A DNA stretch of 64,000 nucleotides from a virus, in the IMG/VR virus record IMGVR_UViG_3300009129_001089, one strand, 5' to 3'. Of the stretch, positions 1 to 60,311 are shown piece after piece (the stretch's first letter is position 1; each line of letters starts with the position of its first letter). The notes beneath the pieces were generated by a model, which made no database searches, was not told where the DNA came from, and saw only the letters and a program-made list of their open reading frames with translations. The translations under genes were made by a program, and so were the position numbers.

Positions 1-1032
1 ATCTAATTGTGGTTTAAAATTTTCAAACGTCATGTGTTCTTCAACACATTTATAATCATCGTATAAACATTGCATCATTATATTAACTGTTCTAGCATGA
101 ATAGTATTTTCTATACAAAATCTACATTTTAATGTTTCATCAGGCATTACAGGATATGCTTCCCATCCTAATTCATTATGTCTATATGGCATTCGCATTT
201 CTGGTGTCCATCCGTTAATACCAATAATCATTGGAGTGTCGGTCATTCCGCAAAATTGCATTAATCCACCTTCGGGCCCAATATAACAATGTGATTTGTC
301 TAATATTGCAATTGCTTCATCTAATGTTGTTTTATGTATCAAGTCGATACATCCTGTTAAATCTAATTCCTCATGAAATCGTGGTCCTATTGACATTTTT
401 TTGTCGCCTATTTGCAAATTAAAAAAATATTTTCCTCCTAATATTACTACTTCATACCCTTTATTTTTACAATATGTTATTATGTCATTTATTGTATGAG
501 CTGGTAATTGGCAAATAGTTTTAGTAGTACCTGGTCCTATTGTAACAAATTTTTTAGGTAAATTAAATCTAGATAAATCTATTTGTTCTACAGGAAATTT
601 AGGATAATTTCGTTCTTCCATAGGTACATTTATTCTACCATCTATTAAATGAAAGTAATGATCAACTGGATGACATTGATGCGGAGCATGAATAGTCATT
701 GAAGTATTGTAAGATATTACTTGTTGGGCCATCGAACCTATAAAAATAGGATCTGTTTCTAATTTTTCTGCATTTGAATCATAAAAAGGATAAAGATTAT
801 TTTCATCTATAAAATATTTTAATATCGGAAGATGATGCTCGTGGCATTTTAAAAATAAATCTTGGTATCTATTTTTAATACTTAATATTACTGGTAAAGT
901 AGTTACCGACATACCTATACCTATTTGTTCCATTTGAAGTACAATAGGCGGTCTATGAAAATAAGATGGTGGATCTTCTCTTAACTTTTCCTCACTATAA
1001 TCACGGGTTCCTGTTGATAACTTTTTAGACAT
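1..1032 (-). CDS. Glycosyltransferase family 9 (heptosyltransferase-like), runs off the window edge
   Basis: Hand-translated open frame from ATG at 1032 (MSKKLSTG...) to base 1; contains IDLIHKTTLDEAIAILDKSHCYIGPEGGLMQFCGMTDTP, a GT9-type motif, then CRFC. Absent from the ORF track because the stop is outside the window. Confidence 0.7.
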   Translation of the reverse strand, partial: MSKKLSTGTRDYSEEKLREDPPSYFHRPPIVLQMEQIGIGMSVTTLPVILSIKNRYQDLFLKCHEHHLPILKYFIDENNLYPFYDSNAEKLETDPIFIGSMAQQVISYNTSMTIHAPHQCHPVDHYFHLIDGRINVPMEERNYPKFPVEQIDLSRFNLPKKFVTIGPGTTKTICQLPAHTINDIITYCKNKGYEVVILGGKYFFNLQIGDKKMSIGPRFHEELDLTGCIDLIHKTTLDEAIAILDKSHCYIGPEGGLMQFCGMTDTPMIIGINGWTPEMRMPYRHNELGWEAYPVMPDETLKCRFCIENTIHARTVNIMMQCLYDDYKCVEEHMTFENFKPQLD

Positions 1033-1825
1033 TGTATTTTTTTGGAATTCTATTATTTTGTAATTTTTTTATAGGATCTTGTGCAAAATCTTCTATTTTA
1101 GTTCTATGTTTTATATTTAATATTTCTAATTCCTGTTCGCCTTCAATTTCTATTGGTACATTATTTTCAAATTCATAGTCTGTTCGTACAAAAGGAATTA
1201 TTTGCATCAAAGGTTGGCCTTGATTTAATTTAATTGTTACATTTGGTTTATTCAATTTAATAAAACAATTAACTTCTTTGTTTGGCAAATGATCAATGTC
1301 TGCATCAATGATGCCTGGTACAACTGTAAAATCACTATTAATATGATAAAATGGGGTTGTATAAAATAAACTAACACCTTTAGGTACATTAGCATACCAA
1401 GGCGTATTTAATTTTATTAAATTGGAACAGCCATCTTCTAAAAACGGTACGCCTTTAGCTTGTTGATAGTCGTGCATTTCCACAGGTTTACTTATAGTAT
1501 TATTAATTATATCTGGTAACATAGAATCCCATCCTCGATTACTTTCACTCCTGCCATCGTCATGAAATCTAAAACACATATCGGTCCACATAGGCAGAAT
1601 ATACCCCGCTCTCATATGATCAAAGATACCTGGACACCCTTTTGCTGTTGGTTGAGGAGGCGCTTCAGGTTCATGTTGATACATTTTATCTAAATGAGTA
1701 TGCCAACTAGGTTTAAAATCTACTGCTGGTCTAATAGGCCATGCATGAGCTAACAATTTATATATTTTTTGCTCATCTACAGTAGTACCTCTACTAGGAT
1801 AAAATTCTATTTTATGTGTTTCCAT
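1025..1825 (-). CDS. Conserved phage protein (CPG..D...GY..P.W / PG..D.D / G.PL.Q.IP family, possibly dUTPase-like beta fold)
   Basis: 266 aa; motifs KGCPGIFDHMRAGYILPMW, KLNTPW, VVPGIIDAD, QGQPLMQIIPFVR. Confidence 0.55.
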   Translation of the reverse strand: METHKIEFYPSRGTTVDEQKIYKLLAHAWPIRPAVDFKPSWHTHLDKMYQHEPEAPPQPTAKGCPGIFDHMRAGYILPMWTDMCFRFHDDGRSESNRGWDSMLPDIINNTISKPVEMHDYQQAKGVPFLEDGCSNLIKLNTPWYANVPKGVSLFYTTPFYHINSDFTVVPGIIDADIDHLPNKEVNCFIKLNKPNVTIKLNQGQPLMQIIPFVRTDYEFENNVPIEIEGEQELEILNIKHRTKIEDFAQDPIKKLQNNRIPKKYNV

Positions 1826-1835: not shown

Positions 1836-1910
1836 TGGTACCCCGACTAGGAATCGAACCTAGATCAATGGCTTAGAAGGCCATTGCTCTATCCATTGAG
1901 CTACCGGGGC
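1836..1910 (-). tRNA. tRNA-Arg(UCU)
   Basis: GCCCCGG TAGCTCAATGGATAGAGC A ATGGC CTTCTAA GCCAT ... GGTTCGATTCC ... TCGGGGT A CCA. Confidence 0.97.
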
Positions 1911-2455
1911 AATACGTATTCCATATCCGCCGCTACAATAAACCTATTATCGTAACTTTGTAATATGCCTGGCCTATGCCAATAATAACTATCGTAAACT
2001 ACCCACTTGCCTATACATGGTTCGACCCATGTTCGTTTCTTTTTACCTACACCATTTGGTGCAAATTCTGTTCCTGCCTTTTTAAAGTCATCTACATCTT
2101 CTGGTATATGTACATAATATATACCACTTAATAACTTATGCTCTCGTTTATGATCATGATTATGCCAAAGATTTTTTCTGTCTTCTGGATATTCTAACGA
2201 TGTCATGTAACTCCAAGATTGAACTTTACTTATTTGTGCTTCTTTTTCTAAATAGAAAAAACATGCACTATAAAAGCTCATTCTAAGTTTTAACCAATGT
2301 ATTCCTGGTAATGTAAAGACATCAAAATTTGTTTGGTAACGTGGACTATTGGTATAATATTTTCCTTCATTAATAGATGCTTTGACATCTTTGCATATGT
2401 TTTTGCGATCTTTTTCGGTGATTAAACTTGTATAATCAAATACTTTATATTTCAT
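1901..2455 (-). CDS. Putative 2OG-Fe(II) oxygenase; stop codon lies inside tRNA-Arg
   Basis: WHNHDH...LSGIYYV...GTEF...WHRP...RFIVAAD. Confidence 0.65.
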   Translation of the reverse strand: MKYKVFDYTSLITEKDRKNICKDVKASINEGKYYTNSPRYQTNFDVFTLPGIHWLKLRMSFYSACFFYLEKEAQISKVQSWSYMTSLEYPEDRKNLWHNHDHKREHKLLSGIYYVHIPEDVDDFKKAGTEFAPNGVGKKKRTWVEPCIGKWVVYDSYYWHRPGILQSYDNRFIVAADMEYVLPR

Positions 2456-2754
2456 ATTAATATTTTAAATTGTGCCGCATCTTTATAATCCCTAAACCGT
2501 ACATTAAAATACCCTAAAAGATTACGAGAATATGACCATCGCTTTTCAGCAGGACCATATTCTTTAGTCATAAATTTTACAAAATTCTTAAAAAATCGTT
2601 TTTCGTTATCTGGCCATTGTTTTAAGAGAGTAAAAGAATGGGTAAATTTAACTTCACCCAAATTTTGATATATAATTACATCAAATTTTACGAAGGCATT
2701 TGAAAAAGTGCTTTTACCCATGGAGGACATTGTGTTCTCGCAAATACTACCCAA
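2452..2754 (-). CDS. Hypothetical phage protein (start uncertain)
   Basis: ORF with YGP...RW...VRFRD..DA..FKI end typical of small jumbo-phage proteins. Confidence 0.45.
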   Translation of the reverse strand: MGSICENTMSSMGKSTFSNAFVKFDVIIYQNLGEVKFTHSFTLLKQWPDNEKRFFKNFVKFMTKEYGPAEKRWSYSRNLLGYFNVRFRDYKDAAQFKILI

Positions 2755-6068: not shown

Positions 6069-6097
6069 ATTATACAGGAATTCTAGTTCATTGTCAA
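6069..6097 (-). promoter_or_regulatory. Consensus sigma70 promoter
   Basis: TTGACA-17 nt-TATAAT. Confidence 0.85.
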
Positions 6098-7279: not shown

Positions 7280-8245
7280 TTATTTTAATTTGGCCTCAAA
7301 TTCTCTTAAACGCCTATAAACACTCATTAATTCAATAATAGTAGGCCATGCTTTTAATAGATATTGCATCGATCCTTCTACTCTACCAAATGCTCTTATT
7401 ATTTGTTGCATTACACCTAGAGTCATTACTCCTGCAACTATTGCTGGTGCTAGGAATACATAAGCGGATAATACATTTGCTTGTAAGTAAGCCATTCGAC
7501 CAATATTAAAATATAGATAACGTATATAACTTAAAAAATGAATTTTACGAACATCATCAAAGAATTCTTCTATTTTCTTTGGTCTAACAGTTCCATCATC
7601 TTCTGCAATAACAAGTATTTTTCTATATGCCGCTTCTTTTGCTTGTATATCATATTCTATACCAACTAAACGCAATATCCACCCTAATCCAATTAAAAAG
7701 GCAGTACCACCTAATGTCCAAAGTAACGCACCTGCAATCAATCCATATTCCCAATCACCAAAAAAGAATATTGGAATACCCAATGATAATCCAAATAATA
7801 TAGGAACAAACTGAACTAAAACCATAACTGATTCGATTAAAGATGTTCCTAAACTTTCCATTATACGACTAAATTTAATTGTATCTTCTTGAACTCTTTG
7901 CGATGCACCTTCTATTTTTCTGGCTTTGTCATACACACTATGATACCATTCAACCATTGCTGTACGCCATCTAAACAAATAGTGAGCTGTAAAAAAACTT
8001 ATTACAACATAGAGTCCAACATATATTCCTGCTAGTGTAATAAATGACAATAAACTTGCAAAATATTCTTCTATTGTAATTGCATTTGGTGTAGCAAGTG
8101 CTTTTTGAATCATATCATAAAATTGACCAAACCATTCATTTATTTTTACATCAATCTTTACTTGAACCCAAAGTGATCCTAAAATAATTATTGAGCCAAG
8201 CCAAGACCATAACAACCATTTTTTATTTAAAAAAAATCTAAACAT
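7280..8245 (-). CDS. SbmA/BacA-family peptide transporter
   Basis: FRWRTAM, IEGASQRVQED, EAAYRK.LV.AED, TLGVMQQI.RAFGRV, W.TIIELMSVY.RLR.FE. Confidence 0.88.
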   Translation of the reverse strand: MFRFFLNKKWLLWSWLGSIIILGSLWVQVKIDVKINEWFGQFYDMIQKALATPNAITIEEYFASLLSFITLAGIYVGLYVVISFFTAHYLFRWRTAMVEWYHSVYDKARKIEGASQRVQEDTIKFSRIMESLGTSLIESVMVLVQFVPILFGLSLGIPIFFFGDWEYGLIAGALLWTLGGTAFLIGLGWILRLVGIEYDIQAKEAAYRKILVIAEDDGTVRPKKIEEFFDDVRKIHFLSYIRYLYFNIGRMAYLQANVLSAYVFLAPAIVAGVMTLGVMQQIIRAFGRVEGSMQYLLKAWPTIIELMSVYRRLREFEAKLK

Positions 8246-9640: not shown

Positions 9641-10433
9641 TCATAAACTCATCTAATATATCTTTTAAATAAACATCTAATAATATTTTCTGTCCTTTTT
9701 CGTTATGGTGATAATTATCCATTACTGTTATATCATCAAGTTCATAATTACGAGTGATATATTTACTAAATGATTGGTCTTTATAACATTTAAAGGCAGA
9801 TAACCTTTTTAGTTTTTCTAATGATAAACAGGTATCTGCTATACCTCCTTCGTTTTCTAGCCAACCATAAGGAAATATTAAAAATTTTGAATTTAAAGAA
9901 TCTATGTAACTTAAAATATGATCAATTTCTTTAACTGCAAAGTTTGATCTGGCATAATTTACTACACCAAATAACGGATCTCGTTTTGTTTTATCGTCTT
10001 CTTTGATCAAATTAAATCTTGTTTTAAGTTGCCATAAATTTATAAAATCTGGTAAATGTCCTTGACCCGAGTTTGACAAAATATCGTAATAGAAAAAATT
10101 CTCTTTGCTTTCTCGAATACCAAAAGTATATTCTTTATATAATACTTGTCTTGGTTCGCTTGATGATAATGATATTATAATTTTATCAAAAAAATCTAAT
10201 CCGTATTTGCTCTGTATTTCATCAATAAAAAATCTAGTTCCGTTTAAACCATCACCACCATGACAAAAAACATGTGTCTCAACATTATATTTTTTATGTA
10301 ATTCGTATGGCCATCCTTTAAAATGATCTATATTATAATCGTCTACAAATGTATCTATTGCTATTTGTTTTTTAGCAGGAATAGGATTATATTCGCCGGC
10401 TACAAAACTGCAACCTATTATTGCTATTCTCAT
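9633..10433 (-). CDS. SGNH/GDSL-like protein
   Basis: N-terminal IIGCSF and C-terminal DNYHHN...GQ. Confidence 0.5.
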   Translation of the reverse strand: MRIAIIGCSFVAGEYNPIPAKKQIAIDTFVDDYNIDHFKGWPYELHKKYNVETHVFCHGGDGLNGTRFFIDEIQSKYGLDFFDKIIISLSSSEPRQVLYKEYTFGIRESKENFFYYDILSNSGQGHLPDFINLWQLKTRFNLIKEDDKTKRDPLFGVVNYARSNFAVKEIDHILSYIDSLNSKFLIFPYGWLENEGGIADTCLSLEKLKRLSAFKCYKDQSFSKYITRNYELDDITVMDNYHHNEKGQKILLDVYLKDILDEFMNE

Positions 10434-10996
10434 TTTATAAGTTGTTTAATTACATACGGATACATAAAATGTTCGACATAAGTGTGTATCATTTTTTTTA
10501 CTTCATCTAATGGCATATCTTGTAATTGCATTGCTCGTTGCTCAATTATTGCTCCGCCATCTACTTCTGATGTTACCCAATGTACAGTAGCACCAAATAC
10601 TGTACAACCATAATTGTATGCGTCTTCGATTGCATTTGTTGATCCTTTAAATGCGGGAAGCAAAGACGGGTGTATGTTAATTATTTTACCTGCCCATTTA
10701 TCACAAAACCAATGGGATAAAATTCGCATCCAGCCAGCAAGTACAATTAAATCAGGCTTAAACTTATCTGGTCCGGTACCCCCAAGTGCAAAGTCTATCT
10801 TTTTATCGTACTCTTCTCGTGTTTCCCCTTTATAATGTTTAATTAAACAAGAACTTACCCCAGCATCCTTTGCTCGGTTAATTACTCCTGCATTAGGATT
10901 ATTTGTAATTACTTGATCTACTTCTATATCATTATTAACAATGGCACTAAAATTTGAGCCTTCTCCAGAAGCCATTACTATTATTTTTTTACTCAT
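10430..10996 (-). CDS. purN: Phosphoribosylglycinamide formyltransferase
   Basis: ASGEGSNF, LAGWMRIL, NIHPSLLPAFKG, GATVHWV...VDGG. Confidence 0.95.
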   Translation of the reverse strand: MSKKIIVMASGEGSNFSAIVNNDIEVDQVITNNPNAGVINRAKDAGVSSCLIKHYKGETREEYDKKIDFALGGTGPDKFKPDLIVLAGWMRILSHWFCDKWAGKIINIHPSLLPAFKGSTNAIEDAYNYGCTVFGATVHWVTSEVDGGAIIEQRAMQLQDMPLDEVKKMIHTYVEHFMYPYVIKQLIK

Positions 10997-11022
10997 AACT
11001 TTCGTATAATTCTTCTACTTGA

Positions 11023-12348
11023 TCAGGCAAATCCCCGCAACTCGTAAGAAGTGCAAGGAGTACTAAAAACTTTATGAAATATGTAATCCACATTCTTTGT
11101 ATAATATCCTACATTAAAAATATCGTTTACTTCGTCCATAGATAAAACGTTATTTGCTATTAAATTATCTTTAAATGCGCCATCACCATGGGCGGCAGTT
11201 TGTACTTCTTTATACGCTTGTTCTCTTGTTAAGCCCTTATTATTAATTAAAAAGAGAAGAACTTGTTGAGAATAAACTAAACCGCCAGTAATATTCAGAT
11301 TTTCTTGCATTCGCTTTGTATTTACTTCCATATTTATAACAACTTTTGTAAGCCGTGTTAATGCAAATGATACATAAGAAAATGTATCAGGTAAAGTAAT
11401 ACGTTCGACACTTGAATGGCTAATATCTCTTTCGTGCCATAATGCTATATTATCTAATGATGGTGCGACTGCACTTTTTATAAGTCTTGCAAGTCCTGTT
11501 AAGTTTTCTGTTAATATAGGATTCTTTTTGTGTGGCATTGCACTAGAACCTTTTTGTCCTTTAGTAAATTGTTCTATTACTTCGCCTACTTCAGTACGTT
11601 GTAAATGTCTTATTTCAACTGCTAAGTTTTCTATACAGCCACCTATAATTCCTAAGTAACTCATTAATAACGCAAAACGATCTCGCGGAACAACTTGCGT
11701 ACTAACATCTTCAGCTAACATGCCAAGTTCGTCTGCTAAGTATTCTTCTATTTTTGGGTCAATAACAGAATAAGTTCCTACTGCTCCACTACATTTTACT
11801 CTACAAATATCATGTTCTGCCTGCTCCAATAACTTTAAGCATCTTTGAAATGCTCTGTAATGCCCTAATAATTTTAATCCAAACGTTGTTGGTTCTGCGT
11901 GTATACCATGCGATCTACCTACACATACTGTATTTTTATGATCTTCTGCTCGTTGTTCTAATACACTTACAATGCTTTTTAAAGCATCTTCTATAACAAT
12001 TAATGATTGTTTTATTTGCAAGGCATTGCAAGTGTCTAATAAATCTTGACTTGTCATGCCCATGTGTATATACTTTGCATTAGGACCTATCATATTAGAA
12101 CAATGGGTTAAAAACGCTAATACATCATGTTTAGTTGTCTTTTCTATTTCATTTATTTTTTCAACAAAATTTCCACTTTCAACACAAAGCCATCTGCATT
12201 TGCGTATATCGTTTACTGCTTCTTTAGGAATGTTTCCATATTTTGCTTGTGCTTCACAAACAATTTCCTCAATATCAAACCAATGTTGAAATCTACTTTC
12301 GTCTGACCAAATATTTTCTATATCAGGGCATGTATATCTTTTATGCAT
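11023..12348 (-). CDS. purB: Adenylosuccinate lyase
   Basis: GSSAMPHKKNP signature, HMGMTSQD, GRSHGIHAEPTTFG, LWHERDISHSSVER. Confidence 0.97.
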   Translation of the reverse strand: MHKRYTCPDIENIWSDESRFQHWFDIEEIVCEAQAKYGNIPKEAVNDIRKCRWLCVESGNFVEKINEIEKTTKHDVLAFLTHCSNMIGPNAKYIHMGMTSQDLLDTCNALQIKQSLIVIEDALKSIVSVLEQRAEDHKNTVCVGRSHGIHAEPTTFGLKLLGHYRAFQRCLKLLEQAEHDICRVKCSGAVGTYSVIDPKIEEYLADELGMLAEDVSTQVVPRDRFALLMSYLGIIGGCIENLAVEIRHLQRTEVGEVIEQFTKGQKGSSAMPHKKNPILTENLTGLARLIKSAVAPSLDNIALWHERDISHSSVERITLPDTFSYVSFALTRLTKVVINMEVNTKRMQENLNITGGLVYSQQVLLFLINNKGLTREQAYKEVQTAAHGDGAFKDNLIANNVLSMDEVNDIFNVGYYTKNVDYIFHKVFSTPCTSYELRGFA

Positions 12349-12952
12349 TAAAGTCTTCTAGTATTTTGAATCCGTCTTGTGAGCAATGATAAGTTTCAAA
12401 TGCTCGTTCCGGATGTGGCATCATACCTAATACATTATTATTACGTATTCCACAAATGCCCATTGTGGAACCATTTGGATTGTTTTTACGCAAATAATAT
12501 GAATATGCTACTTTTTGTTCTTCTACTAACTTTGCAGGGTTAGGGTGATAGTAATTACCTTCTGCATGAGCAATAGGTATTCTACGTTGATAGTGTACAG
12601 GCCAAGTAATTATATCCATTGGCTTACATATAAATTTTTCTGTACTGTTTATTCGTAACGTTCCTGGTAACAAACCTGCTTCACATAATATTTGAAATCC
12701 GTTGCAAATGCCTAGTATTTTTCTATCTGTTTTTTTAAGTTCTTTTATAACAGGACTAAGATTTGCTATTGCACCTGCACGTAAATAATCACCATAACTA
12801 AAGCCTCCTGGTATTACATACATATCAACTTTTGGTAATGTTGTTTCTTTGTGCCAGACACGTATAGGTTTAATTCCTGTATGTGCATACAAGAATCTTT
12901 CCATTTCATTATCGCAGTTACTACCTGGAAATATTATAATCGCTGTTTTCAT
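12341..12952 (-). CDS. purQ: FGAM synthase glutaminase subunit
   Basis: [38 protein letters not shown]. Confidence 0.97.
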
Positions 12953-14492
12953 AATTTTCTATTAATCCTACTCCACCTATTACTGGTGTTGGCATAATGC
13001 CTTTACCTAAAGTTTCGTTATAAAAACTTACATTACCACTAACAACCGGAAATTCTAATTCTTTACATATTTCTGCCATGCCTAAACATACTTCTTTAAA
13101 GTCATGCATAACATTTGGATTTTCCGGATTACCAAAATTTAAACAATTTGTTATACCTAACGGTTTTGCATTTACAGATAATAACTTATTATAACAATCA
13201 TATATAATATATCTAATCCCACTTCTAGGATTATAATGGCAAAATGGGGCACTACTCATAGTTGTCATTGCTATTGCTTTTTTACTATTTGGTATCCTAA
13301 CAATAGCAGGATCTGCTTGTGGTCCTTGTATTGTATTCCCTATTACTTGCGAATCATATTGCTCCCATACCCAATTCATATCAAAATCTGTTACTATAGG
13401 TATATCTATAAATTCTGATTTATAAGGCTCTACTGGTCGTTGTAATTCAGGTGCATCTAATGCTTCTAGTGGTACATCACATACTACTTTATCTTTAACA
13501 CGAACAGTATAATTATTTGTATCTGTTAGTGTTCCTATTTCGACATAATCTAAATCCCATTTATTAAATATACTTTCTACTTCTGCATCAGGATTTAAAA
13601 CAAATAACATTCGTTCTTGGCTTTCGCTTAAAAGTATCTCCCAAGGTTCCATTTTTTCTTCTCTTAAAGGAATTTTTGATATATCAATATCAATACCATA
13701 ATTTCCTTTAAGTGCTACTTCCGAAGTTGAAGAAAGTATACCTGCCGCACCCATATCCTGTGCCGCAATTACTGTGCCTGTTTCAAATAATTCTAATGAT
13801 GCTTCTAGTAATAGTTTTTCTTGAAATGGATCGCCTACTTGTACTGTAGGGCGTTTAACCTCACATTCAGTAAATTCCTCGCTTGCCATAATAGCACCAC
13901 CTATACCATCACGCCCTGTTTTAGCACCTACATAAACAACAATGCCTTTTTTATTTGGAATACTTGTAAATATTTCTTTATTAGTATAACCTACTGTCAT
14001 AGCATTTACAAGAGGATTTTCAGCATAACAATCAAAAAAATGGCATTTGCTACTAACAGTAGGAACCCCGACACAATTCCCATAATCAGCAATCCCTTTA
14101 ACCACTCCATCAATAACTCTCCTATCGTCTGTTGAACCAAAATGTAACGAATTTAAATTTGCAATAGGTCGAGCCCCCATTGTAAAAACATCACGCATGA
14201 TGCCGCCTACTCCTGTTGCGGCTCCTTGATAAGGTTCTATATAACTAGGATGATTATGACTCTCTATTTTAAAAACTAGTTTATCACCGTCACCTATATT
14301 GACTACACCTGCATTTTCACCAGGGCCAGATATGACTTGCTTGCCTTCAGTGTATAATTGTTTTAGCCAAAATTTAGAACTTTTATAAGAGCAATGTTCA
14401 CTCCACATTGCATCAAATACATGAGTTTCGGTTACGTTAGGTGCCCGACCTAATCTTTCGTCTATTAATTTTATTTCGTCATTCGTTAACAT
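12921..14492 (-). CDS. purL: FGAM synthase synthetase subunit (short, 523 aa)
   Basis: [51 protein letters not shown]. Confidence 0.95.
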
Positions 14493-15135
14493 GTTTTTCC
14501 CAATTTACATAACTTAATTGTCTATCATTACCTAATTCTTTAGCAAATGTATTAAACGCCAAAGTGTATCTAATATCATTTTGCTGATTAATATTAACAG
14601 AATGCATTATATCTGATGGAAACATAATTAAGTCTCCATTGGTCATTGGTGCATCTACATATTCTGCATTCATACTATTATGGGTAGACTGTTGTAATTG
14701 AATCATAGGTAGATGCCTATTATAAAATTGCGTAGGAGGCATTGAGCTGGTTACATTTAAATAAAATATTCCACTAATAATACTATTTTGATGATGGTGC
14801 GTCGGATGGCCTGCCCCGGACTCATTTTTATTAACCCAAGAATTTGTAATAATCAATTCTGTTTTGGTAGAAATAACATCTATTGCATAATTTTTTATTT
14901 TTTCTTCAATCCAATTTTTAATTTTAGATAATTTTTTATGCCGTAATATGTACGAATCTTCTGTTTTACAATTTCCGTTATATGATCCTTCTTGTCTAAA
15001 TGGTAACTTTTGTATGTATTCAAATTCTTCATCATATGTATCAGGATATTTACTTACAAACATTGTAGTTGGAAAAACATGCAATATTGTATCATCGCCC
15101 TTAACAAATTTTGTTACATGATCTAATACATTCAT
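14479..15135 (-). CDS. Putative 2OG-Fe(II) oxygenase (TIGR02466-like)
   Basis: SWVN...[17 protein letters not shown]...FPS..MHSV...RYTLAFN. Confidence 0.8.
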
Positions 15136-15350
15136 TCTTCCTCTATTTCATAATCATACAATAAGGTATTAACAAGAACTGTTTCGCATAATTCTTTAAT
15201 TTTATGATGAGGGGCATTAAAATAAAATACTTGTCCTACTTTCATATTTTCTACTTGCCATCCATTAGCATTTACGTTTAATGATATATTATCGCCTTGT
15301 ATATCTTTAATACCTTTTCTTAATTTTGTTGTGATTTTGTATTTTTTCAT
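15132..15350 (-). CDS. purS: FGAM synthase PurS subunit
   Basis: 72 aa; LRKGIKDIQG, LCETVLVNTLLYDYEI; lies in the purL/purQ cluster. Confidence 0.8.
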   Translation of the reverse strand: MKKYKITTKLRKGIKDIQGDNISLNVNANGWQVENMKVGQVFYFNAPHHKIKELCETVLVNTLLYDYEIEEE

Positions 15351-15351
15351 A

Positions 15352-15948
15352 TTAATAAATTTGTTCTATCTTATCGCATAATCCTAATTTTTTTGCTTCT
15401 TTAGCACCAAGCCAAACATCATGTGCAGGAAGTAAGTATTTTCTAATATCTGATTCTTTAAGACCAGTACATTTTTTATAATGATTGATCATACGCTCTG
15501 TTGTTAGTTCTAACTCTTTAACTCTAGCAAATAGTTCGTGTTCTTTTCCTATACTGCCCCATGAATATTGGTGCGATAAAATACTTGTGTTTGGTGTTAG
15601 AACTCGTCTACCTTTTGCACCAGTTATAAACATAAGTAATCCACACGAGGCAATCATGCCTAGTCCAACTGTTTTGATAGGAATTTTAGATCCTTTCATT
15701 ACATCTACTAATGCAAAACATGCATTAAGATCTCCGCCTCTAGAACATATACCTAATGTCAATTCTTTTTGCTTTTTTGGTTTATAATTTTCTGCAAGTA
15801 TCCAGTCAATTAACGGACTCATTGATTCTACTGTAACATCACCCATAAAAACCACTACACCATTCATTAATAGTTCCATTTTAGGAACCATTGCTTCAGG
15901 ACTTGACGGTCCTTGGGGAACTCCTTGATCTTCGTCTTCGTTTCTCAT
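15352..15948 (-). CDS. clpP: ClpP-family serine protease
   Basis: SRGG, GMIASCG (Ser), ILSHQ (His), HDVWL (Asp), EAKKLGLCD. Confidence 0.85.
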   Translation of the reverse strand: MRNEDEDQGVPQGPSSPEAMVPKMELLMNGVVVFMGDVTVESMSPLIDWILAENYKPKKQKELTLGICSRGGDLNACFALVDVMKGSKIPIKTVGLGMIASCGLLMFITGAKGRRVLTPNTSILSHQYSWGSIGKEHELFARVKELELTTERMINHYKKCTGLKESDIRKYLLPAHDVWLGAKEAKKLGLCDKIEQIY

Positions 15949-15957
15949 TTTATTCCT

Positions 15958-17001
15958 TTAAAATATTTTATTTTGTTGATTGTTTACCATTACAAAGGTT
16001 GTACATTTTGGAATATCTTTTATTCTTCTTGCACCAATCATTGTACATGCACTTCTAAGTCCGCCTAAAATATTTTTTACTGTATCTCTAACAGGCCCTC
16101 TTGAATCCATTGTAACTCGTTTACCTTCTGTACTAGTATAGCCATCTTTTCGAGATCCATGCACTTCTTTTGCACGATCAGAACTCATGCCGTAAAATTC
16201 ATATTTTCCATCTTGTTTTGGTAAATCGCATTCATCATGAAATGCCAGCATACCTCCTAACATAACAAAGTCTGCTCCCGCTCCAAATGCTTTTGTTATA
16301 TCACCCGGAACAGTACATCCACCATCTGCAATTATATATCCCCCCAAACCATGTGCGGCATCTGCACATTCCATTACTCCACTTATTTGTGGCATACCTA
16401 CTCCGGTTTGCTCTCGTGTTGTACATACACTACCTGGACCTATACCACATTTAACCACATCTGCACCCGATATACATAATTGCTCGGTCATTTCTCCAGT
16501 AATAACATTACCTGCAATTATAATTTTATCAGGAAAATCATCTCGTACTTTAACAACAAAATCTGCAAAATTTTGCTGATAACCATTTGCTACATCTATA
16601 CAAATAAATTTAACTTCTGGCCATTCTGTTAATACTGCTTTTGCAGTAGCATAATCTGTTGCGTTGTCGTCCCAAATAGCATTGGTACCTGTACTAACTA
16701 CTACATTATTTAAACGTAATCCTTTACTTGCCGCTTCTTTCCAGTCATCAAATGAATAATGCTTTCTAATTGTAGTAAGCATATTAAACTCTTGCAGTAC
16801 CATTGCCATCGAAAATGTACCTACCCCATCCATGTTTGATGACATAATAGGAGTACCTGCCCATTTTTGGGAAGATTCGTCCCAATGCCTAAACGTAAAC
16901 TCTCTTTCTAAGTTTATACTTCGTCTACTAGATATTGTAGAACGTTTAGGTTGTAATAATACATCTGAATAATCTAATTTTATTTCAGTGTCTACTCTCA
17001 T
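15958..17001 (-). CDS. guaC: GMP reductase
   Basis: KLDYSDVLLQPKRST, CIDVANGY, GIGPGSVCTTR, FYGMSS, GGLRSACT; no CBS domains. Confidence 0.92.
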   Translation of the reverse strand: MRVDTEIKLDYSDVLLQPKRSTISSRRSINLEREFTFRHWDESSQKWAGTPIMSSNMDGVGTFSMAMVLQEFNMLTTIRKHYSFDDWKEAASKGLRLNNVVVSTGTNAIWDDNATDYATAKAVLTEWPEVKFICIDVANGYQQNFADFVVKVRDDFPDKIIIAGNVITGEMTEQLCISGADVVKCGIGPGSVCTTREQTGVGMPQISGVMECADAAHGLGGYIIADGGCTVPGDITKAFGAGADFVMLGGMLAFHDECDLPKQDGKYEFYGMSSDRAKEVHGSRKDGYTSTEGKRVTMDSRGPVRDTVKNILGGLRSACTMIGARRIKDIPKCTTFVMVNNQQNKIF

Positions 17002-17420
17002 TATGCACCATATGGCTGTTCAAAGTTTATTATGTCTAGGATACGTTTTGCGTATAATGCGGCATTAATTGCACCATGCTTGCCAACTGACATACATGCA
17101 ACTGGTACACCTTTTGGCATTTGTACTATACTTAGTAAACTATCAATACCCATTAAATCACTTTTCATTGGTACACCTATTACTGGTAAATTTGTTTGGG
17201 ATGCAACCACACCTGGCAATGCGGCAGACATTCCTGCGGCCGCAATAATAATTTTATATCCGGATGCTTCCCATTTTTTAATATACTCGGTTACTTTTTC
17301 TGGATTTCTATGTGCAGATGCAGTAACTATTTCATTGCCGATATTTAATTCGTTTAATTTATCAACGCAATTATTCATCGTCTCTAGGTCGCTGTCGCTT
17401 CCCACTATTATTCCTATCAT
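17001..17420 (-). CDS. purE: N5-CAIR mutase / AIR carboxylase
   Basis: GSDSD, SAHRNP, AAGMSAALPGVVAS, PVIGVP, QMPKGVPVA. Confidence 0.95.
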   Translation of the reverse strand: MIGIIVGSDSDLETMNNCVDKLNELNIGNEIVTASAHRNPEKVTEYIKKWEASGYKIIIAAAGMSAALPGVVASQTNLPVIGVPMKSDLMGIDSLLSIVQMPKGVPVACMSVGKHGAINAALYAKRILDIINFEQPYGA

Positions 17421-17589
17421 TTTTCTCCTTAGTTTGAAATTCTTCTAATATTTCAAGTAATCGTTTATATTGTTTAGATGTTAATTTTCTTAACTGTCCA
17501 ATACTTGCTCCATCAAACCCCATTTTATAAAGTTCATCATGTCCAATACCTGCTATCAAGGTAAGCCTCGTTCTTTTGCTTGAAACCAT
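17371..17589 (-). CDS. Hypothetical protein
   Basis: 72-aa ORF inside the operon-like run. Confidence 0.35.
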   Translation of the reverse strand: MVSSKRTRLTLIAGIGHDELYKMGFDGASIGQLRKLTSKQYKRLLEILEEFQTKEKNDRNNSGKRQRPRDDE

Positions 17590-17939
17590 GATTCTGAATT
17601 ATATGATTTATCACAAATGTACATATCAAAATGTGGTTTATTTCCTACTTGTACATCATGGTATTTACATCCCCATTCTAGTAATTGACTTTTGGTTAAT
17701 TCTGTATGGTCTAATCCAGAATGGATACCACGGGCAGTCCAATAAACAATTTTATGACCTTCATCGTATAATTCGTTTATATGCTTAATTCTTTCTGGTT
17801 TCGGAGTTGCTTTTGTATAATCCATAGGTTGGTCATCAAAATTTGGCAACTCTGGATTATCACAAATAGTACCATCTACGTCAACGTAGATAATTTTATG
17901 TTTTTTTAATTTCATTTTTCCTTTAATATTCTGCAACAA
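17556..17939 (-). CDS. HAD-superfamily phosphatase-like protein
   Basis: YVDVDGTIC, YWTARG, KP.FDMYICDK. Confidence 0.8.
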   Translation of the reverse strand: MLQNIKGKMKLKKHKIIYVDVDGTICDNPELPNFDDQPMDYTKATPKPERIKHINELYDEGHKIVYWTARGIHSGLDHTELTKSQLLEWGCKYHDVQVGNKPHFDMYICDKSYNSESWFQAKERGLP

Positions 17940-18531
17940 AAATGTGATACTTTATAATGGTATATATAAATCCTATAAAAAAGATCCCCATACCAATTTC
18001 ATGTAATTTTTTACTATTACTGAATATCATTGGAGTCATAATGCAAAGCATAAGAACTCTACCTATTACTTTCAATGACATTAATTCTCCTTTAAAGAAT
18101 ACAAAGAGATTTGCAAGTAGACAACATTGTAATGCTACTGCCAATCCTAAAATAACCTTATGGTTTTCGTAATAGTATTCACATAAATCAACCGATTTAT
18201 CTTTATATGTCTCCGGTTGTGGAGCAACTACTTCAGTTACCATAAAAAATATTAATGGTACTGAAAGATATAAAAGAAACGTAAATAAATTCCAATCTTC
18301 ATTTGAAAAATATGCTAAGTCTCTTAGTGGATACGAAGTCCACCAAAATAATATAATAGTAAAAAAAGTTATAAAACTAAAAGCCGTATGTGGCCAATAG
18401 AAATAAACATCATCGTCTGGATTATCATTGTAATTTTTTGCTAATAATGAACTGTAATTTATCATTAACCTAACCATAGACATGGCTAAAACTACAAAGG
18501 GTATCATAGATAAATGTGAAAATGCGACCAT
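17923..18531 (-). CDS. Multi-pass membrane protein
   Basis: About 6 hydrophobic segments, 202 aa. Confidence 0.65.
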   Translation of the reverse strand: MVAFSHLSMIPFVVLAMSMVRLMINYSSLLAKNYNDNPDDDVYFYWPHTAFSFITFFTIILFWWTSYPLRDLAYFSNEDWNLFTFLLYLSVPLIFFMVTEVVAPQPETYKDKSVDLCEYYYENHKVILGLAVALQCCLLANLFVFFKGELMSLKVIGRVLMLCIMTPMIFSNSKKLHEIGMGIFFIGFIYTIIKYHIFVAEY

Positions 18532-19470
18532 TCATTTTTCCTCCAACTCGCCTAAAATAAGATGTTCAGTTAATACATTACTTAAATACTGCCATTCACT
18601 ATCTTCTGGAACAATTATAACCATTCCTACACCGCAATTAAATGTTTTCATCATTTGTTTTTTAGTTAAGTTTGCCTCTGCTTGTATCCATTGAAACAAA
18701 CTTTCGTGTCTAAAAAATCTAGTCTCATTTGATTTATTGCCACTTTTTACAGAATGATATAATCTATAATTACATACTAAGTTCTTTGGTAATATTCTTT
18801 TTGTATTAGTATGACCACCTCCTGTTATATGTGCTATTCCTTTTATTTCTATACCTGCTTCTTTAAGTGCATCCAATTCTTTTTTATATATTTTTGTTGG
18901 CTCAAGCAACGAATACATAAATTCTTTTTCGTCTACGTTATTCGGAGTTTTATGTGCATATTCTCGTATCATTGTGTAACCATTAGAGTGAAATCCTGTA
19001 GAAGGCAAACCTATTACTTTATCTCCTGGTTGCATATTATTTTTAGGCAATTGATCCATTGATATACCTACACCAAATCCGCAAACATCAAATGTACCTT
19101 GTTCAATTATGCCAGGCAACTCAGCAGTCTCGCCTCCTACTAATTCTATTCCTACTTGAGAACATCCAAAATATATTCCTTCTAATACTTCTTTAAAATC
19201 TTCCTCGTTAACATTTGCTGAACAAAAATAATCCAAAAAGAACAACGGTTCACATCCATTACATAATAAATCATTAATAACCATTGCTACACAATCTACT
19301 CCTATTGATTGCAACGGCCTACCATATTTTTCCTTTGCTTGTTGTGCTAATAGTATCTTTGTTCCAACACCGTCACAACTTGAAATAAGATTGCCATGCC
19401 TAGCCGCAAAGCCTCCTATCTGTTCTGAATATTGTGAAATACTTTTAACTAGTTTATCATTTTTATTCAT
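18532..19470 (-). CDS. purM: AIR synthetase
   Basis: DGVGTK, DCVAM.INDL, EPLFFLDY, GGETAELPG, G.HSNGY, AHITGGG, TFNCGVGM. Confidence 0.97.
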   Translation of the reverse strand: MNKNDKLVKSISQYSEQIGGFAARHGNLISSCDGVGTKILLAQQAKEKYGRPLQSIGVDCVAMVINDLLCNGCEPLFFLDYFCSANVNEEDFKEVLEGIYFGCSQVGIELVGGETAELPGIIEQGTFDVCGFGVGISMDQLPKNNMQPGDKVIGLPSTGFHSNGYTMIREYAHKTPNNVDEKEFMYSLLEPTKIYKKELDALKEAGIEIKGIAHITGGGHTNTKRILPKNLVCNYRLYHSVKSGNKSNETRFFRHESLFQWIQAEANLTKKQMMKTFNCGVGMVIIVPEDSEWQYLSNVLTEHLILGELEEK

Positions 19471-19477
19471 TATTACC

Positions 19478-21025
19478 TTATTCCCATTCTATTGTTCCTG
19501 GTGGCTTAGAAGTTATGTCGTAAACTACTCTATTTACTCCTGATACATTATTAATAATTTCAGTAGAACATTTACTAAGCACTTCATGTGGTAAATTAAA
19601 CCAATCAGCAGTCATACCATCTTCACTTGAGACTGCTCGTAATGCAATAAGATTTTCGTATGTTCTATCATCGCCCATTACACCTACTGTTTTAATAGGT
19701 ATCAAAACTGCAAATGCTTGCCAAATACCTTCGATATCACCTAACGTCTTTAAAAATACACTATCTGCCTCACGTAATATTCGTAATCTTTCATGTGTTA
19801 CTTCGCCCATTATTCGTACTGCTAGTCCTGGTCCGGGAAATGGCTGGCGGGTTAAAACAGTATCTGGCAACCCTAATTCTTTGCCCAATAATCTTACTTC
19901 ATCTTTAAATAAATTCCTAAGTGGTTCAATTAAAGTAAATTCCATATTGTCGGGTAATCCACCTACATTATGGTGCGACTTAATTGTTGCCGCTATATCT
20001 TTTCCTGATTCAATAACATCAGGATACAATGTACCTTGTGCTAAAAACTTTGCATCCTTTGTAACATCTTCAAAGCATCTAATAAATTCTCTTCCAATTA
20101 CTTTTCGTTTAACTTCCGGATCAGTAATGTTTTCTAATACTTTCCAAAACCTTTGTGTAAAATCATACTTTGTAATGTTTAATCCTAGCTCTTGCATGGA
20201 TTTCATTATTTCGTTTGCTTCGTTTTTACGAAGTAACCCTGTATCAATAAAAACACATTTTGACTGTTTACCTATTGCTTTGTGTAATAATTTTCCTACT
20301 ACTGCGGAATCAACTCCTCCACTAATTGCAGTTATAACTTCTCCATCACCTACTTGTTCTCTTATAGATTTAATAGCATCTTCAATAATATATTTTGAAA
20401 TCCAATCTTTATCACATTGTGCTACTTTAAATAAAAAGTTTCTAAATACATCTCTTCCAATAAGTGAATGTACTACTTCCGGATGAAATTGTACTCCGTA
20501 AATAGGTTTTTCTTTATGCTTAACCGCCGCTATAACATTGTTAGAAGATCTTGCTATAATATCAAATACTTTTGGTAATGTTTGTATTTCATCTGCATGA
20601 CTCATCCATACTTGGGCTCCTTCTATCCAATCTTTGTCACATTCTGCTAATAATGGATCTGGCTTTTCTACGTATATGTTTGCAAGTCCGTATTCGCCTG
20701 TGCCACGAATAATTTTTCCGCCTTCTTTGTGTACTATTTCTTGTAAGCCATAACATATACCTAAAATAGGAATACCTAAGTTTAAAATATCAGGATCTAA
20801 CTTAGGTGCTTCGGTTTCGTATACACCTGATCTGCTTCCTGATAATATTATTGCTTTAGCATTTTTTAATTCTTCTGCTTTAACAGACGGAGCATATATT
20901 TTGGAATAAACATTTTGTTCTCTAACTCTCCTGGCAATGAGTTGTGTATATTGGGCACCAAAATCTATTACTGCTACAGGATTATGTGTGTACTTTGCTC
21001 CAAAATCTATTACCGCGACTGTCAT
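19478..21025 (-). CDS. guaA: GMP synthase (glutamine-hydrolysing)
   Basis: GICYGLQ, QFHPEV, SGGVDS, QGTLYPDVIES, IKSHHNVGGLP, KPPGTIEWE. Confidence 0.97.
   Translation of the reverse strand: MTVAVIDFGAKYTHNPVAVIDFGAQYTQLIARRVREQNVYSKIYAPSVKAEELKNAKAIILSGSRSGVYETEAPKLDPDILNLGIPILGICYGLQEIVHKEGGKIIRGTGEYGLANIYVEKPDPLLAECDKDWIEGAQVWMSHADEIQTLPKVFDIIARSSNNVIAAVKHKEKPIYGVQFHPEVVHSLIGRDVFRNFLFKVAQCDKDWISKYIIEDAIKSIREQVGDGEVITAISGGVDSAVVGKLLHKAIGKQSKCVFIDTGLLRKNEANEIMKSMQELGLNITKYDFTQRFWKVLENITDPEVKRKVIGREFIRCFEDVTKDAKFLAQGTLYPDVIESGKDIAATIKSHHNVGGLPDNMEFTLIEPLRNLFKDEVRLLGKELGLPDTVLTRQPFPGPGLAVRIMGEVTHERLRILREADSVFLKTLGDIEGIWQAFAVLIPIKTVGVMGDDRTYENLIALRAVSSEDGMTADWFNLPHEVLSKCSTEIINNVSGVNRVVYDITSKPPGTIEWE
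20942..21019 (-). repeat. 42-nt-period tandem duplication at the guaA N-terminus
   Basis: VAVIDFGAKYTH-NP-VAVIDFGAQYTQ. Confidence 0.85.
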
Positions 21026-24929: not shown

Positions 24930-24940
24930 TTTTTATCTCC

Positions 24941-27447: not shown

Positions 27448-27524
27448 TGGTAGGGATGACTGGATTCGAACCAGCGACCTCTACATCCCAAATGTAGCGT
27501 TCTCCCAGACTGAACTACATCCCT
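27448..27524 (-). tRNA. tRNA-Pro(UGG)
   Basis: AGGGATG...CTACA TTTGGGA TGTAG...CATCCCT A CCA. Confidence 0.94.
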
Positions 27525-46521: not shown

Positions 46522-46550
46522 ATTATAACATAAAAAATTTATAAAGTCAA
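46522..46550 (-). promoter_or_regulatory. Sigma70 promoter, likely leaderless transcript
   Basis: TTGACT-17 nt-TATAAT with TGn; ATG follows the -10 box after 6 nt. Confidence 0.7.
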
Positions 46551-52587: not shown

Positions 52588-53129
52588 TTTAAAATTGCTA
52601 CGATACTTGAACCGACAAATTTAGGCTCTGAAAGGAAATCTGTTTTCAAACTTTTCGATAATCGTTCAAAAAGTTCTAATCCGTGCTCTTTGTATATATA
52701 CCGTTCGCGACCTTTAAATCGAACTACAATTTTTACTTGATCACCTTTATCTAAAAACTTTTTAATTTTGTTTGCTTTAACTTCAAAATCATGGTTATCA
52801 ATTTTTGGTCTAAATTGCATTTCTTTTAACTCAGTCCGAGTTGCACGAGCATTTTTTGCTAGAGCTTTCTTCCTTTGTTGTTCTTTATATACGTATTTAT
52901 TTAAATCCACAATTTTTGCAACCGGTGGATCTGCTTTTTCAGATACAACTACAACCTCTAATTCCCGTTCACGAGCAATTGATATGGCTTTTCTAGTCTC
53001 CATAACTCCCAATTGTTCGCCCTTTTCATCTATAAGCCGTAACATAGGGTGGCTTATATAATTACTTCGTCTGTTGTTTTTTCCCGTAAACGAGGAATGG
53101 TTCCTGTTGTTTCGTGATCGTGTCTTCAT
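52581..53129 (-). CDS. infC: Translation initiation factor IF3
   Basis: [41 protein letters not shown]....FKGRE. Confidence 0.93.
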
Positions 53130-54294
53130 TTATAACTACCTTTTCTATGCCTTTCTTTTCGTATGTTGGTAAGTTAAATTGCACATCTAATAATGCATTT
53201 TCTATAACTGATCGCAATCCTCTTGCGCCGACTTTTGTATCATTACAAATTTTAACTATTTCTTCACATGCTTTATCTGTAAATTCTAATTTAACATTAT
53301 CCATTTCAAATATTCGTTTAAATTGTTTAATAATGCTATTTTTAGGTTCTTGTAATACTTGTATTAACTGTTTTTTTGTAAGTTCTTTTAAACCTACACG
53401 TACAGGTACTCTACCTACTAATTCAGGTATCATGCCATACTCAACTAAATCGTCTGGTTCTACTCGATTAAAATAATTTGTGTCATCTTGTTGTTCATCT
53501 ATTATTGCTCCAAATCCTATCGATTTTGTTTTGTTTAATCGTTTTTTAATATGCTTTTCTAAATCTATAAATGCTCCTCCTAATATAAACAATATGTTTT
53601 TAGTATCAACTTCTACTATTTCAGATTGAGGATGCTTTCTTCCACCTGCTGGGGGTACACGAACTTCGGTGCCTTCTATCATTTTTAACAATGCTTGTTG
53701 GACTCCTTCGCCGCTTACATCTCTCGTAATACTTGCAGATTCAGATTTTCGTCCTTTTTTATCTATTTCATCAACATATACAATACCTTTTTCTGCCCTA
53801 TCAATATCATATTCTGCATTATGCAATAGTTTAGTTATTAAATTTTCTACATCATCGCCTACATATCCTGCTTCTGTTACTGTAGTTGCATCGGCTATTG
53901 CAAATGGCACATCTAATATTTTTGCTACTGTACTTGCCATTAATGTTTTACCACAGCCAGACGGACCTAATAACAGTACATTAGATTTATCCAATTCTAT
54001 GTCTGATGCTATATGATTAATTCGTTTATAATGATTATATACTGCTACTGATAAGACTTTTTTTGCTTCGTGTTGACCAATGACAAATTCATTTAAATGG
54101 TCGTAAATTGCTTGTGGGGTGTAAACATAATGTTCATTAATTTCACTTTCTTCTTCACTAATAATATCAAAGGAAAGTTTAATACATTCGTCGCATATAA
54201 AAGCGCCGTTGTCAGGACCTTGAATTAATTTTTTAACTTCTTCTCGAGTTTTATTACAAAAACTACAGATAAAGTTTTTAGTGTTCGGGTTCAT
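53062..54294 (-). CDS. clpX: ATP-dependent Clp protease ATPase subunit
   Basis: CSFC...ICDEC zinc finger, [35 protein letters not shown] loop. Confidence 0.97.
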
Positions 54295-59857: not shown

Positions 59858-60027
59858 TGGGGGAATTCTTCTGTTCCCAAGTGACCCCCCGGAGGACAAT
59901 CCTCTAACTCGGCTACTGATTATGCGGCAAGCATAACCTGTGCAGGTGAATAATCGTTATTATTTGCGATTATGTTTTTTGTTGTCTCGTCGTTGCATCC
60001 CACGGTGTCGATATCTATTTCACCCCC
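59858..60027 (-). ncRNA. ssrA: tmRNA coding piece (permuted two-piece gene); 3' end approximate
   Basis: 5' GGGGGTGAAATAGATATCGAC; tag frame 59967-59920 encodes ANNNDYSPAQVMLAA*. Confidence 0.9.
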
Positions 60028-60039
60028 ATCAACTAAAAA

Positions 60040-60171
60040 CTAAAAGAGCCAAATACTGTTATTTTCTAAAAAATTTATTCCAAACAAAACAATACCTATT
60101 ATAAGACTAATAATAACGATTGTAGCAAATTCCCCGTCCATACCGATTCTCCCCGGAAGTACGAGTTTCAT
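60040..60171 (-). CDS. Small TM peptide in the tmRNA intervening segment (43 aa, or 33 aa from ATG 60141)
   Basis: MKLVLPGRIG-MDGEFATIVIISLIIGIVLFGINFLENNSIWLF*; GGAG SD before the second ATG. Confidence 0.5.
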   Translation of the reverse strand: MKLVLPGRIGMDGEFATIVIISLIIGIVLFGINFLENNSIWLF

Positions 60172-60201
60172 TTATTCCATTAAATGCTTCTAATTTTTAT
60201 T

Positions 60202-60267
60202 TGGTGGAGGTGGGCGGAATCGCACCGCCGTCCAGTCGTTTTCAACAAAGAGTCTTTAACAACATTA
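60202..60267 (-). ncRNA. ssrA: tmRNA acceptor piece; 5' end approximate
   Basis: GAC GGCGG TGCGATT CCGCC CACCTCC A CCA; pairs with GGGGGTG giving G3.U70. Confidence 0.9.
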
Positions 60268-60273
60268 ATATTT

Positions 60274-60302
60274 ATTATAACATAATTAAAATTGTGTGTC
60301 AA
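60274..60302 (-). promoter_or_regulatory. Consensus sigma70 promoter of the tmRNA precursor
   Basis: TTGACA-17 nt-TATAAT with TGn; overlapping TAAATA. Confidence 0.85.
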
Positions 60303-60311
60303 CCGTCTATT

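Follow-up and report, generated by a model that had tools for sequence, protein, structure and literature searches.

Bacterial RNase P cleaves at position +1 of the tRNA. In mitochondria, tRNA excision reportedly defines the mRNA ends within a polycistronic transcript, a tRNA punctuation that Ojala, Montoya and Attardi are said to have described in 1981, and excision together with polyadenylation completes stop codons that are left as U or UA. Same-strand overlaps between a coding sequence (CDS) and a tRNA or transfer-messenger RNA (tmRNA) have been surveyed in bacterial chromosomes as sources of non-stop mRNAs; 115,660 t(m)RNAs yielded 250 cases with an upstream CDS, which mostly represent a few lineage-specific events (Hudson, Lau & Williams 2014, PMC4131195). 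The survey infers that tRNA maturation gives rise to a non-stop mRNA and draws a parallel to arfA; the core idea of non-stop messages from CDS/tRNA overlaps has hence been published since 2014 (PMC4131195). Here we analyzed a viral DNA of 64,000 nucleotides (nt), the IMG/VR virus record IMGVR_UViG_3300009129_001089 (in its full length referred to as the window), in which a 2OG-Fe(II) oxygenase's open reading frame (ORF) has its only stop codon within the adjacent tRNA-Arg(TCT).

The fate of an mRNA that is located directly upstream of a tRNA has been documented for secG-leuU of Escherichia coli, where a single RNase P cut at tRNA +1 parts the mRNA from the tRNA across a spacer of 14 nt (Mohanty & Kushner, PMC2241853). 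The lifetime of the co-transcript is below 30 s, the freed secG mRNA is lost exonucleolytically in less than 30 s, and about 80% of the secG mRNA 3' ends map inside the coding region (PMC2241853). In Proteobacteria selB reads into or through selC, and tRNA processing has been proposed to repress the full-length protein (Mukai 2021, PMC8124441). Some lineages have conserved this trait and others have lost it, and it was judged to be non-essential (PMC8124441). In the case of arfA from E. coli, cleavage by RNase III upstream of the stop codon generates a tmRNA substrate (summarised in PMC4131195).

The oxygenase ORF of the window encodes 184 amino acids (aa) and terminates with ...MEYVLPR*. Its sole in-frame stop codon is the TAG at positions 1903-1901, which corresponds to nt 8-10 of tRNA-Arg (Table 1). 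The minus strand reads ...GAA TAC GTA TTG CCC CGG TAG CTC AAT GG... across the junction: tRNA nt 1 (window position 1910) provides the last base of the Leu codon TTG, which is followed by CCC (Pro; nt 2-4), CGG (Arg; nt 5-7) and the stop (nt 8-10). The first-pass annotation of the window, which was made from the letters alone, had placed the end of the oxygenase at exactly this position, and its observation of a stop inside the tRNA is confirmed by the agreement of sequence, ORF listing, ARAGORN and Rfam. The Rfam tRNA model (RF00005) reaches 70.8 bits at 1839..1910 with a gathering score of 29. The oxygenase ORF matches PF13759 (2OG-FeII_Oxy_5) with 29.6 bits at a cut-off of 27 and phrog_81 ("2OG-Fe(II) oxygenase") with 2.6e-06. 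It has 173 homologues at E<=1e-3, and 35 columns are invariant in a 27-sequence alignment. The ORF is a genuine gene.

The position of the stop codon reflects a general property of tRNAs. In the window seven of eight tRNAs carry TAG at nt 8-10, so that any ORF entering such a tRNA in the respective frame must stop there. The other two read-in frames of tRNA-Arg encounter their stops at nt 36-38 or 49-51 and would add 12-17 junk residues. The overlap of 10 nt (-10 geometry) is accordingly the cheapest of three read-in outcomes, with just three residues added, and no improbable coincidence. In the absence of a stop before the tRNA, every full-length oxygenase needs a transcript that extends to tRNA nt 10 or further. 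The acceptor stem of tRNA-Arg contains the two wobble pairs G1.U72 and G7.U66, the latter being replaced by A7-U66 in some relatives. In the region of this tRNA (window 1836-1912, minus strand), the U at position -1 could pair with A73 and extend the stem to 8 bp; stems of this type are known to shift the site choice of RNase P, but the stop would be removed from either cut site.

We consider it probable that the junction represents a borrowed stop codon, placed where a tRNA-punctuated polycistronic transcript is maximally compacted, and that it came about via compaction or cassette turnover. The oxygenase ORF, which has no stop of its own, is extended by three codons (Leu-Pro-Arg) through the acceptor stem and ends at the near-universal U8-A9-G10. 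Full-length oxygenase would then be synthesized while the precursor is still unprocessed, at the time of transcription or shortly thereafter, and the terminating ribosome would cover approximately tRNA nt 1-20 and block the folding of the tRNA. Subsequently the tRNA could fold and be excised by the RNase P cut at +1, and the remaining upstream fragment, ending with ...GUA UU, would be expected to decay via established pathways. Ribosomes that are still present on this fragment would be subject to trans-translation, resulting in ...MEYV-(A)ANNNDYSPAQVMLAA with a ClpXP-type degron. Overlaps of this kind may arise repeatedly by small deletions or cassette exchange at the 5' edges of tRNAs. The prediction that tRNA maturation would remove the stop is physically plausible, since the TAG is part of the tRNA and a +1 cut would leave ...GUA UU. 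The further claim that tRNA release and protein are mutually exclusive does not follow, because translation of the precursor and later release of the tRNA can be sequential on one transcript.

Close relatives of the Arg junction were obtained via a protein cluster database and a metagenome scan with the tRNA sequence, which provided 11 more contigs. Searches in the phage GenBank collection and in IMG/VR resulted in tRNA-level matches only (blastn) and in one 30% match (tblastn); the search for related loci with the oxygenase protein alone found nothing, and the tRNA pattern had no match in IMG/VR. The nearest protein cluster (92% aa identity) comprises many marine contigs from Tara and JGI that exhibit the same layout with the junction ...GTA ATG CCC CGA TAG. 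The -10 overlap is kept in all seven distinct oxygenase sequences, including the window, and the identity to the latter ranges from 91% to 96%. The tRNA-Arg sequence is near-invariant among the relatives, and the variants at the junction are TTG or ATG at the codon that ends in tRNA nt 1, C3 or T3 (Pro or Leu; pairing C-G or U.G), and G7 or A7, a synonymous exchange (CGG/CGA) that pairs with U66 as G.U or A-U.

Some near relatives lack the gene. Four loci (L111, L113, L116, L120) contain an identical tRNA, the same small gene upstream and the same 266-aa gene downstream without the oxygenase, and their small upstream gene stops 21 nt before the tRNA. The locus L121 shares the identical tRNA and the small upstream gene, likewise without the oxygenase, but its sequence downstream of the tRNA differs. 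In the oxygenase-less loci (L113:2440-2500; L121:6085-6135; L111, L116, L120) there are short remnants from either end of the oxygenase gene, namely ATAT-AATATAAA...CGTATTG in L113 and ATGAAGTAT-TAG...AATACGTATTG in L121. Judging from these remnants, the loci are probably deletion derivatives, and their retention of the tRNA indicates that the oxygenase is dispensable. The downstream flank of L121 is also found in L114, and both edges of the tRNA behave as mosaic boundaries.

The wider oxygenase family shows a different picture. Homologues with 46-55% aa identity all have their own stop, and most of them lack an adjacent tRNA. Conservation of the overlap in related phage contigs, a check named in the first-pass annotation, hence holds for the close sequences, but not for these more distant homologues, which stop upstream. 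The L015-type lineages terminate 14-15 nt before tRNA-Arg(TCT), L094 terminates 0 nt before tRNA-Arg(TCT), and L089 and L091 terminate 1 nt before tRNA-Gly. In the maximum-likelihood tree a long stem leads to the window clade, which is grouped with lineages that have no tRNA neighbour and is separate from those of the spacer type. On the family tree, at least two to three changes are required for the tRNA-adjacent state, suggesting that the oxygenase family probably came to lie beside tRNAs more than once. The L015-type layout (EYVL-TAG, 14-nt spacer, tRNA-Arg) was considered as an ancestor from which an 18-nt deletion might have produced the overlap, but it was rejected because the spacer-type lineages are placed in the other half of the tree. 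The tail "...EYVPRKFRC" in L044, L050 and L052 proved to be a frame-extension artefact, the true end being ...ADMVF-TAA.

A second junction of the same geometry is located 25 kb from the first one. Here, a DUF6445/2OG-oxygenase-like CDS of 200 aa runs into tRNA-Pro(TGG), the first tRNA of an array of six, and A GGG ATG TAG represents tRNA-Pro nt 1-10. The junction is found at exactly -10 in relatives with 73, 72, 66 and 58% aa identity, and 11 of 12 aligned sequences of the 200-aa ORF (window included) end with ...Y-x-G-K/M or similarly. The acceptor stem of tRNA-Pro exhibits a compensatory change, with U6-A67 in the window and A6-U67 in relatives, which alters the last codon between ATG and AAG and hence the last residue between Met and Lys. 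This flip shows that the overlapped residues are dictated by the pairing of the tRNA and not by the protein. The codon of the last conserved residue (Tyr) lies just 2 nt ahead of the tRNA; there is accordingly no room for a separate stop, which explains the conservation at this junction. The DUF6445 relative P0134 (255 aa) reads beyond the usual ...FFVYxGK end (...YAGQWWYDAPSTERYF); in this lineage the tRNA-borne TAG may have been lost or the tRNA replaced.

A third example, which came up blind, involves an unrelated gene. In L101:4473-5766, and at the same coordinates of L102, a PEPCK_ATP gene is positioned between tRNA-His and tRNA-Ile and ends with TTA ACA GGC GTG TAG, the stop of which is formed by nt 8-10 of tRNA-Ile. 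Both tRNAs are adjacent to each other in the window, L106 and L109, and the PEPCK case looks like a fresh cassette insertion that adopted the same geometry. Among the loci examined there are 118 distinct tRNA junctions, and -10 is the sole overlap class; the remaining junctions mostly have short spacers of 0, 1, 6-8 or 14-15 nt.

The PEPCK insertion at precisely the 5' edge of a tRNA is the type of event that would be expected if the conserved tRNA served as a homology arm for the movement of accessory genes between phages, an explanation that we regard as highly improbable. The associated proposal that genes fused to the 5' edge of a tRNA are preferentially co-transferred, so that the recurrent -10 geometry would result from recombination and not from expression, appears no less remote. 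The distribution of sequence identities is compatible with such a module, as the oxygenase is 91-96% identical and the tRNA nearly invariant next to a flanking 266-aa gene with 56-88% identity. The alternative downstream flanks behind the same tRNA (L114, L121) and the two to three or more changes to the tRNA-adjacent state in the family tree point in the same direction. A recombination module of this kind would be compatible with a borrowed stop codon rather than exclusive of it.

The tRNA-Arg is closely flanked on both sides. The Shine-Dalgarno motif AAGGA (1830-1834) of the downstream 266-aa CDS is located 2 nt past the tRNA CCA and its ATG 11 nt past, and the TGA of the small upstream CDS overlaps the oxygenase ATG (ATGA). 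The tRNA is thus wedged between co-oriented genes in a gap-free string, and in about half of the neighbouring gene pairs of the window the two genes overlap or abut. A scan of the minus strand from the oxygenase start to the tRNA detected no sigma-70-like promoter and no convincing terminator in the same interval. From the absence of a sigma-70-like match inside the oxygenase gene on its strand, which is weak evidence, co-transcription of oxygenase and tRNA-Arg is likely. A perfect sigma-70 consensus (TTGACA-17-TATAAT; 12/12) at 6097..6069 on the minus strand is the nearest strong site upstream of the oxygenase/tRNA-Arg string. The T4 late-promoter motif TATAAATA is under-represented across the window, with none near the junction. 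Small parts of the stretch are represented in six metatranscriptome runs; the four examined consist of short contigs from related strains, none of which covers at least 31 nt on both sides of the junction.

The lack of a promoter-like match in the coding region upstream of the tRNA, on the strand in question, argues against the view that tRNA-Arg originates mainly from its own start site, or that the oxygenase message ends or decays independently. Under this explanation, which we deem very unlikely, joint precursors would be rare and RNase P would seldom meet a translated oxygenase mRNA, a consequence to which we give equally little credence. It is also difficult to reconcile with the missing stop, since an mRNA that does not reach the tRNA would have no stop at all. 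Some evidence in its favor comes from the oxygenase-less relatives, in which motifs resembling TATAAT/TATAAATC occur in the AT-rich 21-nt spacer ahead of the tRNA; this shows that a possible promoter can precede the tRNA. Moreover, the promoters of this phage may differ from the sigma-70 consensus.

Table 1. Location of the two CDS/tRNA junctions, the genes adjoining tRNA-Arg and the phage rescue and proteolysis genes in the window
Feature	Position	Strand	Basis or remark
tRNA-Arg(TCT), CCA encoded	1836..1910	minus	ARAGORN; Rfam 70.8 bits; alignment
2OG-Fe(II) oxygenase CDS (PF13759), 184 aa	1901..2455	minus	ORF listing, Pfam, PHROG
CDS/tRNA overlap, 10 nt	1901..1910	minus	sequence, ARAGORN, ORF listing
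Downstream CDS, 266 aa (phrog_7084)	1025..1825	minus	ORF listing, PHROG
Upstream small CDS	2452..2754	minus	TGA overlaps oxygenase ATG (ATGA)
tRNA-Pro(TGG), first of six-tRNA array	27448..27524	minus	ARAGORN, Rfam; 10-nt overlap with 200-aa CDS
DUF6445/2OG-oxygenase-like CDS, 200 aa	27515..28117	minus	ends TAT CCA GGG ATG TAG
ClpP homologue	15352..15948	minus	PF00574, 98.8 bits
ClpX homologue (zf-C4_ClpX + AAA_2)	53062..54294	minus	Pfam domains
Permuted (two-piece, alpha-type) tmRNA	59859..60306	minus	Rfam

The window encodes its own tmRNA, ClpX and ClpP (Table 1), as had been noted in the first-pass annotation. The permuted tmRNA was called by Rfam although ARAGORN did not call it on the window, and ClpP was found by Pfam whereas a motif regular expression had no match. 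The tag frame GCA AAU AAU AAC GAU UAU UCA CCU GCA CAG GUU AUG CUU GCC GCA UAA is translated into ANNNDYSPAQVMLAA and ends with LAA. Two-piece tmRNAs are known from pelagimyophage and Melnitz-like marine phages (PMC9004378). SmpB was not detected among the ORFs of a non-exhaustive scan. Tagging and proteolysis by the phage may lower the cost of the overlap, but nothing ties tmRNA, ClpX and ClpP specifically to the Arg junction. HSP20 and IF3 are also encoded, and together with ClpP, ClpX and tmRNA they form a set that is distributed over the stretches 15352-15948, 51807-54294 and 59859-60306 of the window, all on the minus strand.

With its AT-rich sequence (32.8% GC) and nearly all genes on one strand, the window represents a large marine phage-like genome. 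Protein P0121, which is 99% identical to the 200-aa ORF, is located on a contig of 309 kb, so that the window may belong to a jumbo phage. Many paralogues of the 2OG-Fe(II) oxygenase/DUF6445 type are present (14479, 28114, 28635, 30140, 43153, 49004 and 55888). Three paralogous genes of the tryptophan-halogenase family (PF04820, 287-346 bits) are found on the minus strand at 33949-35583, 39658-41313 and 46547-48124. A run of purine-biosynthesis genes on the minus strand (window 10430-25783) comprises formyltransferase, parts of FGAM synthase, adenylosuccinate lyase, a member of the IMPDH/GMP-reductase family, AIR carboxylase, GMP synthase, amidophosphoribosyltransferase and SAICAR synthetase. 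The gene for an SbmA/BacA-like inner-membrane transporter (PF05992, 448 bits) at 7280-8245 on the minus strand represents unusual phage cargo.

The co-occurrence of a stop inside the tRNA with a phage-encoded tmRNA of the LAA-tag type, ClpX and ClpP suggests a more elaborate scenario, in which RNase P maturation deliberately makes the oxygenase mRNA non-stop and the product is degraded by the ClpXP of the phage. We regard such a selected coupling as unlikely, and we are equally doubtful about its expected product, ...MEYV plus (A)ANNNDYSPAQVMLAA, that is ...MEYV-AANNNDYSPAQVMLAA in the form tagged by the phage tmRNA. The same reservation applies to its proposed role as a timer or switch that trades oxygenase against tRNA output, or as an arfA-like readout of tmRNA capacity. 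Apart from the rescue and proteolysis genes, the scenario draws on the retention of the overlap in all gene-bearing close relatives, on the second junction, which also concerns an oxygenase and is conserved to 58% identity, and on the similar repression hypothesis for selB-selC (PMC8124441). However, the oxygenase product lacks a link to ribosome rescue, near relatives keep the tRNA without the oxygenase, and in the wider family (46-55% identity) every homologue has a stop of its own. The third junction harbors an unrelated gene, PEPCK, and the overlapped codons track the pairing of the tRNA instead of the needs of the protein. The conservation of the Pro junction is explained by the gap of 2 nt between Tyr and tRNA. 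Finally, an intact stop with a 14-nt spacer does not save the upstream mRNA from destruction after the RNase P cut (PMC2241853), so that an overlap adds little leverage.

The arfA-like switch that was proposed in the first-pass annotation is unsupported on the same grounds, namely the missing rescue link, the apparent deletion of the gene in near relatives and the upstream stops of distant homologues, and it is further weakened by the fate of the secG mRNA. The interpretation in the first-pass annotation is partly supported: the physical consequence of tRNA maturation is plausible and the phage genes for rescue and proteolysis are real, but the dedicated switch is not borne out. An extension of the switch to the whole phage lineage, with stop-in-tRNA junctions (Arg, Pro, Ile) used systematically as timers and co-adapted genes for rescue and proteolysis, strikes us as decidedly unlikely. 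We have similarly low expectations of its mechanistic version, according to which accessory enzymes would be produced from the nascent precursor only, and late products would be tmRNA-tagged and destroyed by the phage ClpXP.

Several observations weigh against a borrowed stop that is simply endured. The Pro overlap is kept down to 58% aa identity and the Arg overlap in seven of seven gene-bearing sequences, none of which has gained an upstream stop, and both facts would also be expected under selection for the overlap. The presence of two junctions in 64 kb of a phage with tmRNA, ClpX and ClpP is suggestive as well, and the junction frequencies carry a bias, as most loci were retrieved via their homology to the genes that overlap. 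On the other side, the recurrence of the geometry follows no functional theme (oxygenase, DUF6445, PEPCK), the oxygenase is dispensable, the overlapped codons are set by the tRNA and the genes are tightly packed. In addition, a message that precedes a tRNA becomes short-lived and largely non-stop even if it has its own stop codon, so that a shift from a spacer of +14 or 0 to an overlap of -10 changes little, and for this reason the overlap would be tolerated and recurrent. In our assessment the balance favors a tolerated overlap that is probably no dedicated regulatory device.

If the overlap is merely tolerated, it provides a well-documented example of the limits of phage compaction at tRNA islands, and it shows that stop-in-tRNA junctions can remain stable across long divergence. 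A practical rule for annotation is that a CDS seemingly without a stop before a tRNA usually ends at U8-A9-G10 of the tRNA. The findings further suggest that phages with many such junctions may routinely produce non-stop messages, which would be one possible reason for the presence of tmRNA and Clp genes in some marine phages. It is nonetheless rather improbable that the possession of several stable stop-in-tRNA junctions is part of the reason why a phage lineage carries tmRNA and ClpXP.

The comparison with the described systems allows us to place the Arg junction. With arfA it would share a programmed endonucleolytic cut before the stop that turns the message into a tmRNA substrate. Unlike ArfA, which is a rescue factor with an active truncated product, the 2OG-Fe(II) oxygenase has no tie to ribosome rescue or tmRNA capacity and is absent in near relatives, and the stop-removing element is not conserved throughout the family, as only the clade with 91-96% identity overlaps. 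The selB-selC pair resembles the phage locus in its same-strand CDS that enters a tRNA and in the C-terminal extension that consists of translated tRNA sequence. In contrast to oxygenase and tRNA-Arg, between which no link is known, SelB and its tRNA are functional partners for which feedback makes sense, and the selB stop is located at nt 46-48 or beyond the tRNA instead of nt 8-10. In secG-leuU, as predicted from sequence for the phage, a single transcript carries a protein gene with a tRNA directly behind it, but secG keeps its stop and a spacer of 14 nt, whereas the phage spacer is -10 and the cut would remove the stop.

The overlaps surveyed by Hudson, Lau & Williams (PMC4131195) represent a class to which the Arg junction corresponds in its components: a valid tRNA, a Pfam-positive upstream CDS on the same strand and a stop inside this tRNA are all present. 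The differences are the setting, a marine phage that itself encodes tmRNA, ClpX and ClpP, and the presence of at least two junctions in 64 kb. The nearest architectural analogue is the tRNA punctuation of mitochondria, with which the phage locus shares a tRNA flanked by co-oriented CDSs without a spacer (-10 upstream, Shine-Dalgarno 2 nt after CCA downstream). Adenylation of the phage fragments would not complete a stop codon, as ...GUA UU + A results in UUA and ...UAU CC + A at the Pro junction in CCA. Excision, which in mitochondria contributes to the creation of a stop, would here remove the one that the tRNA provides.

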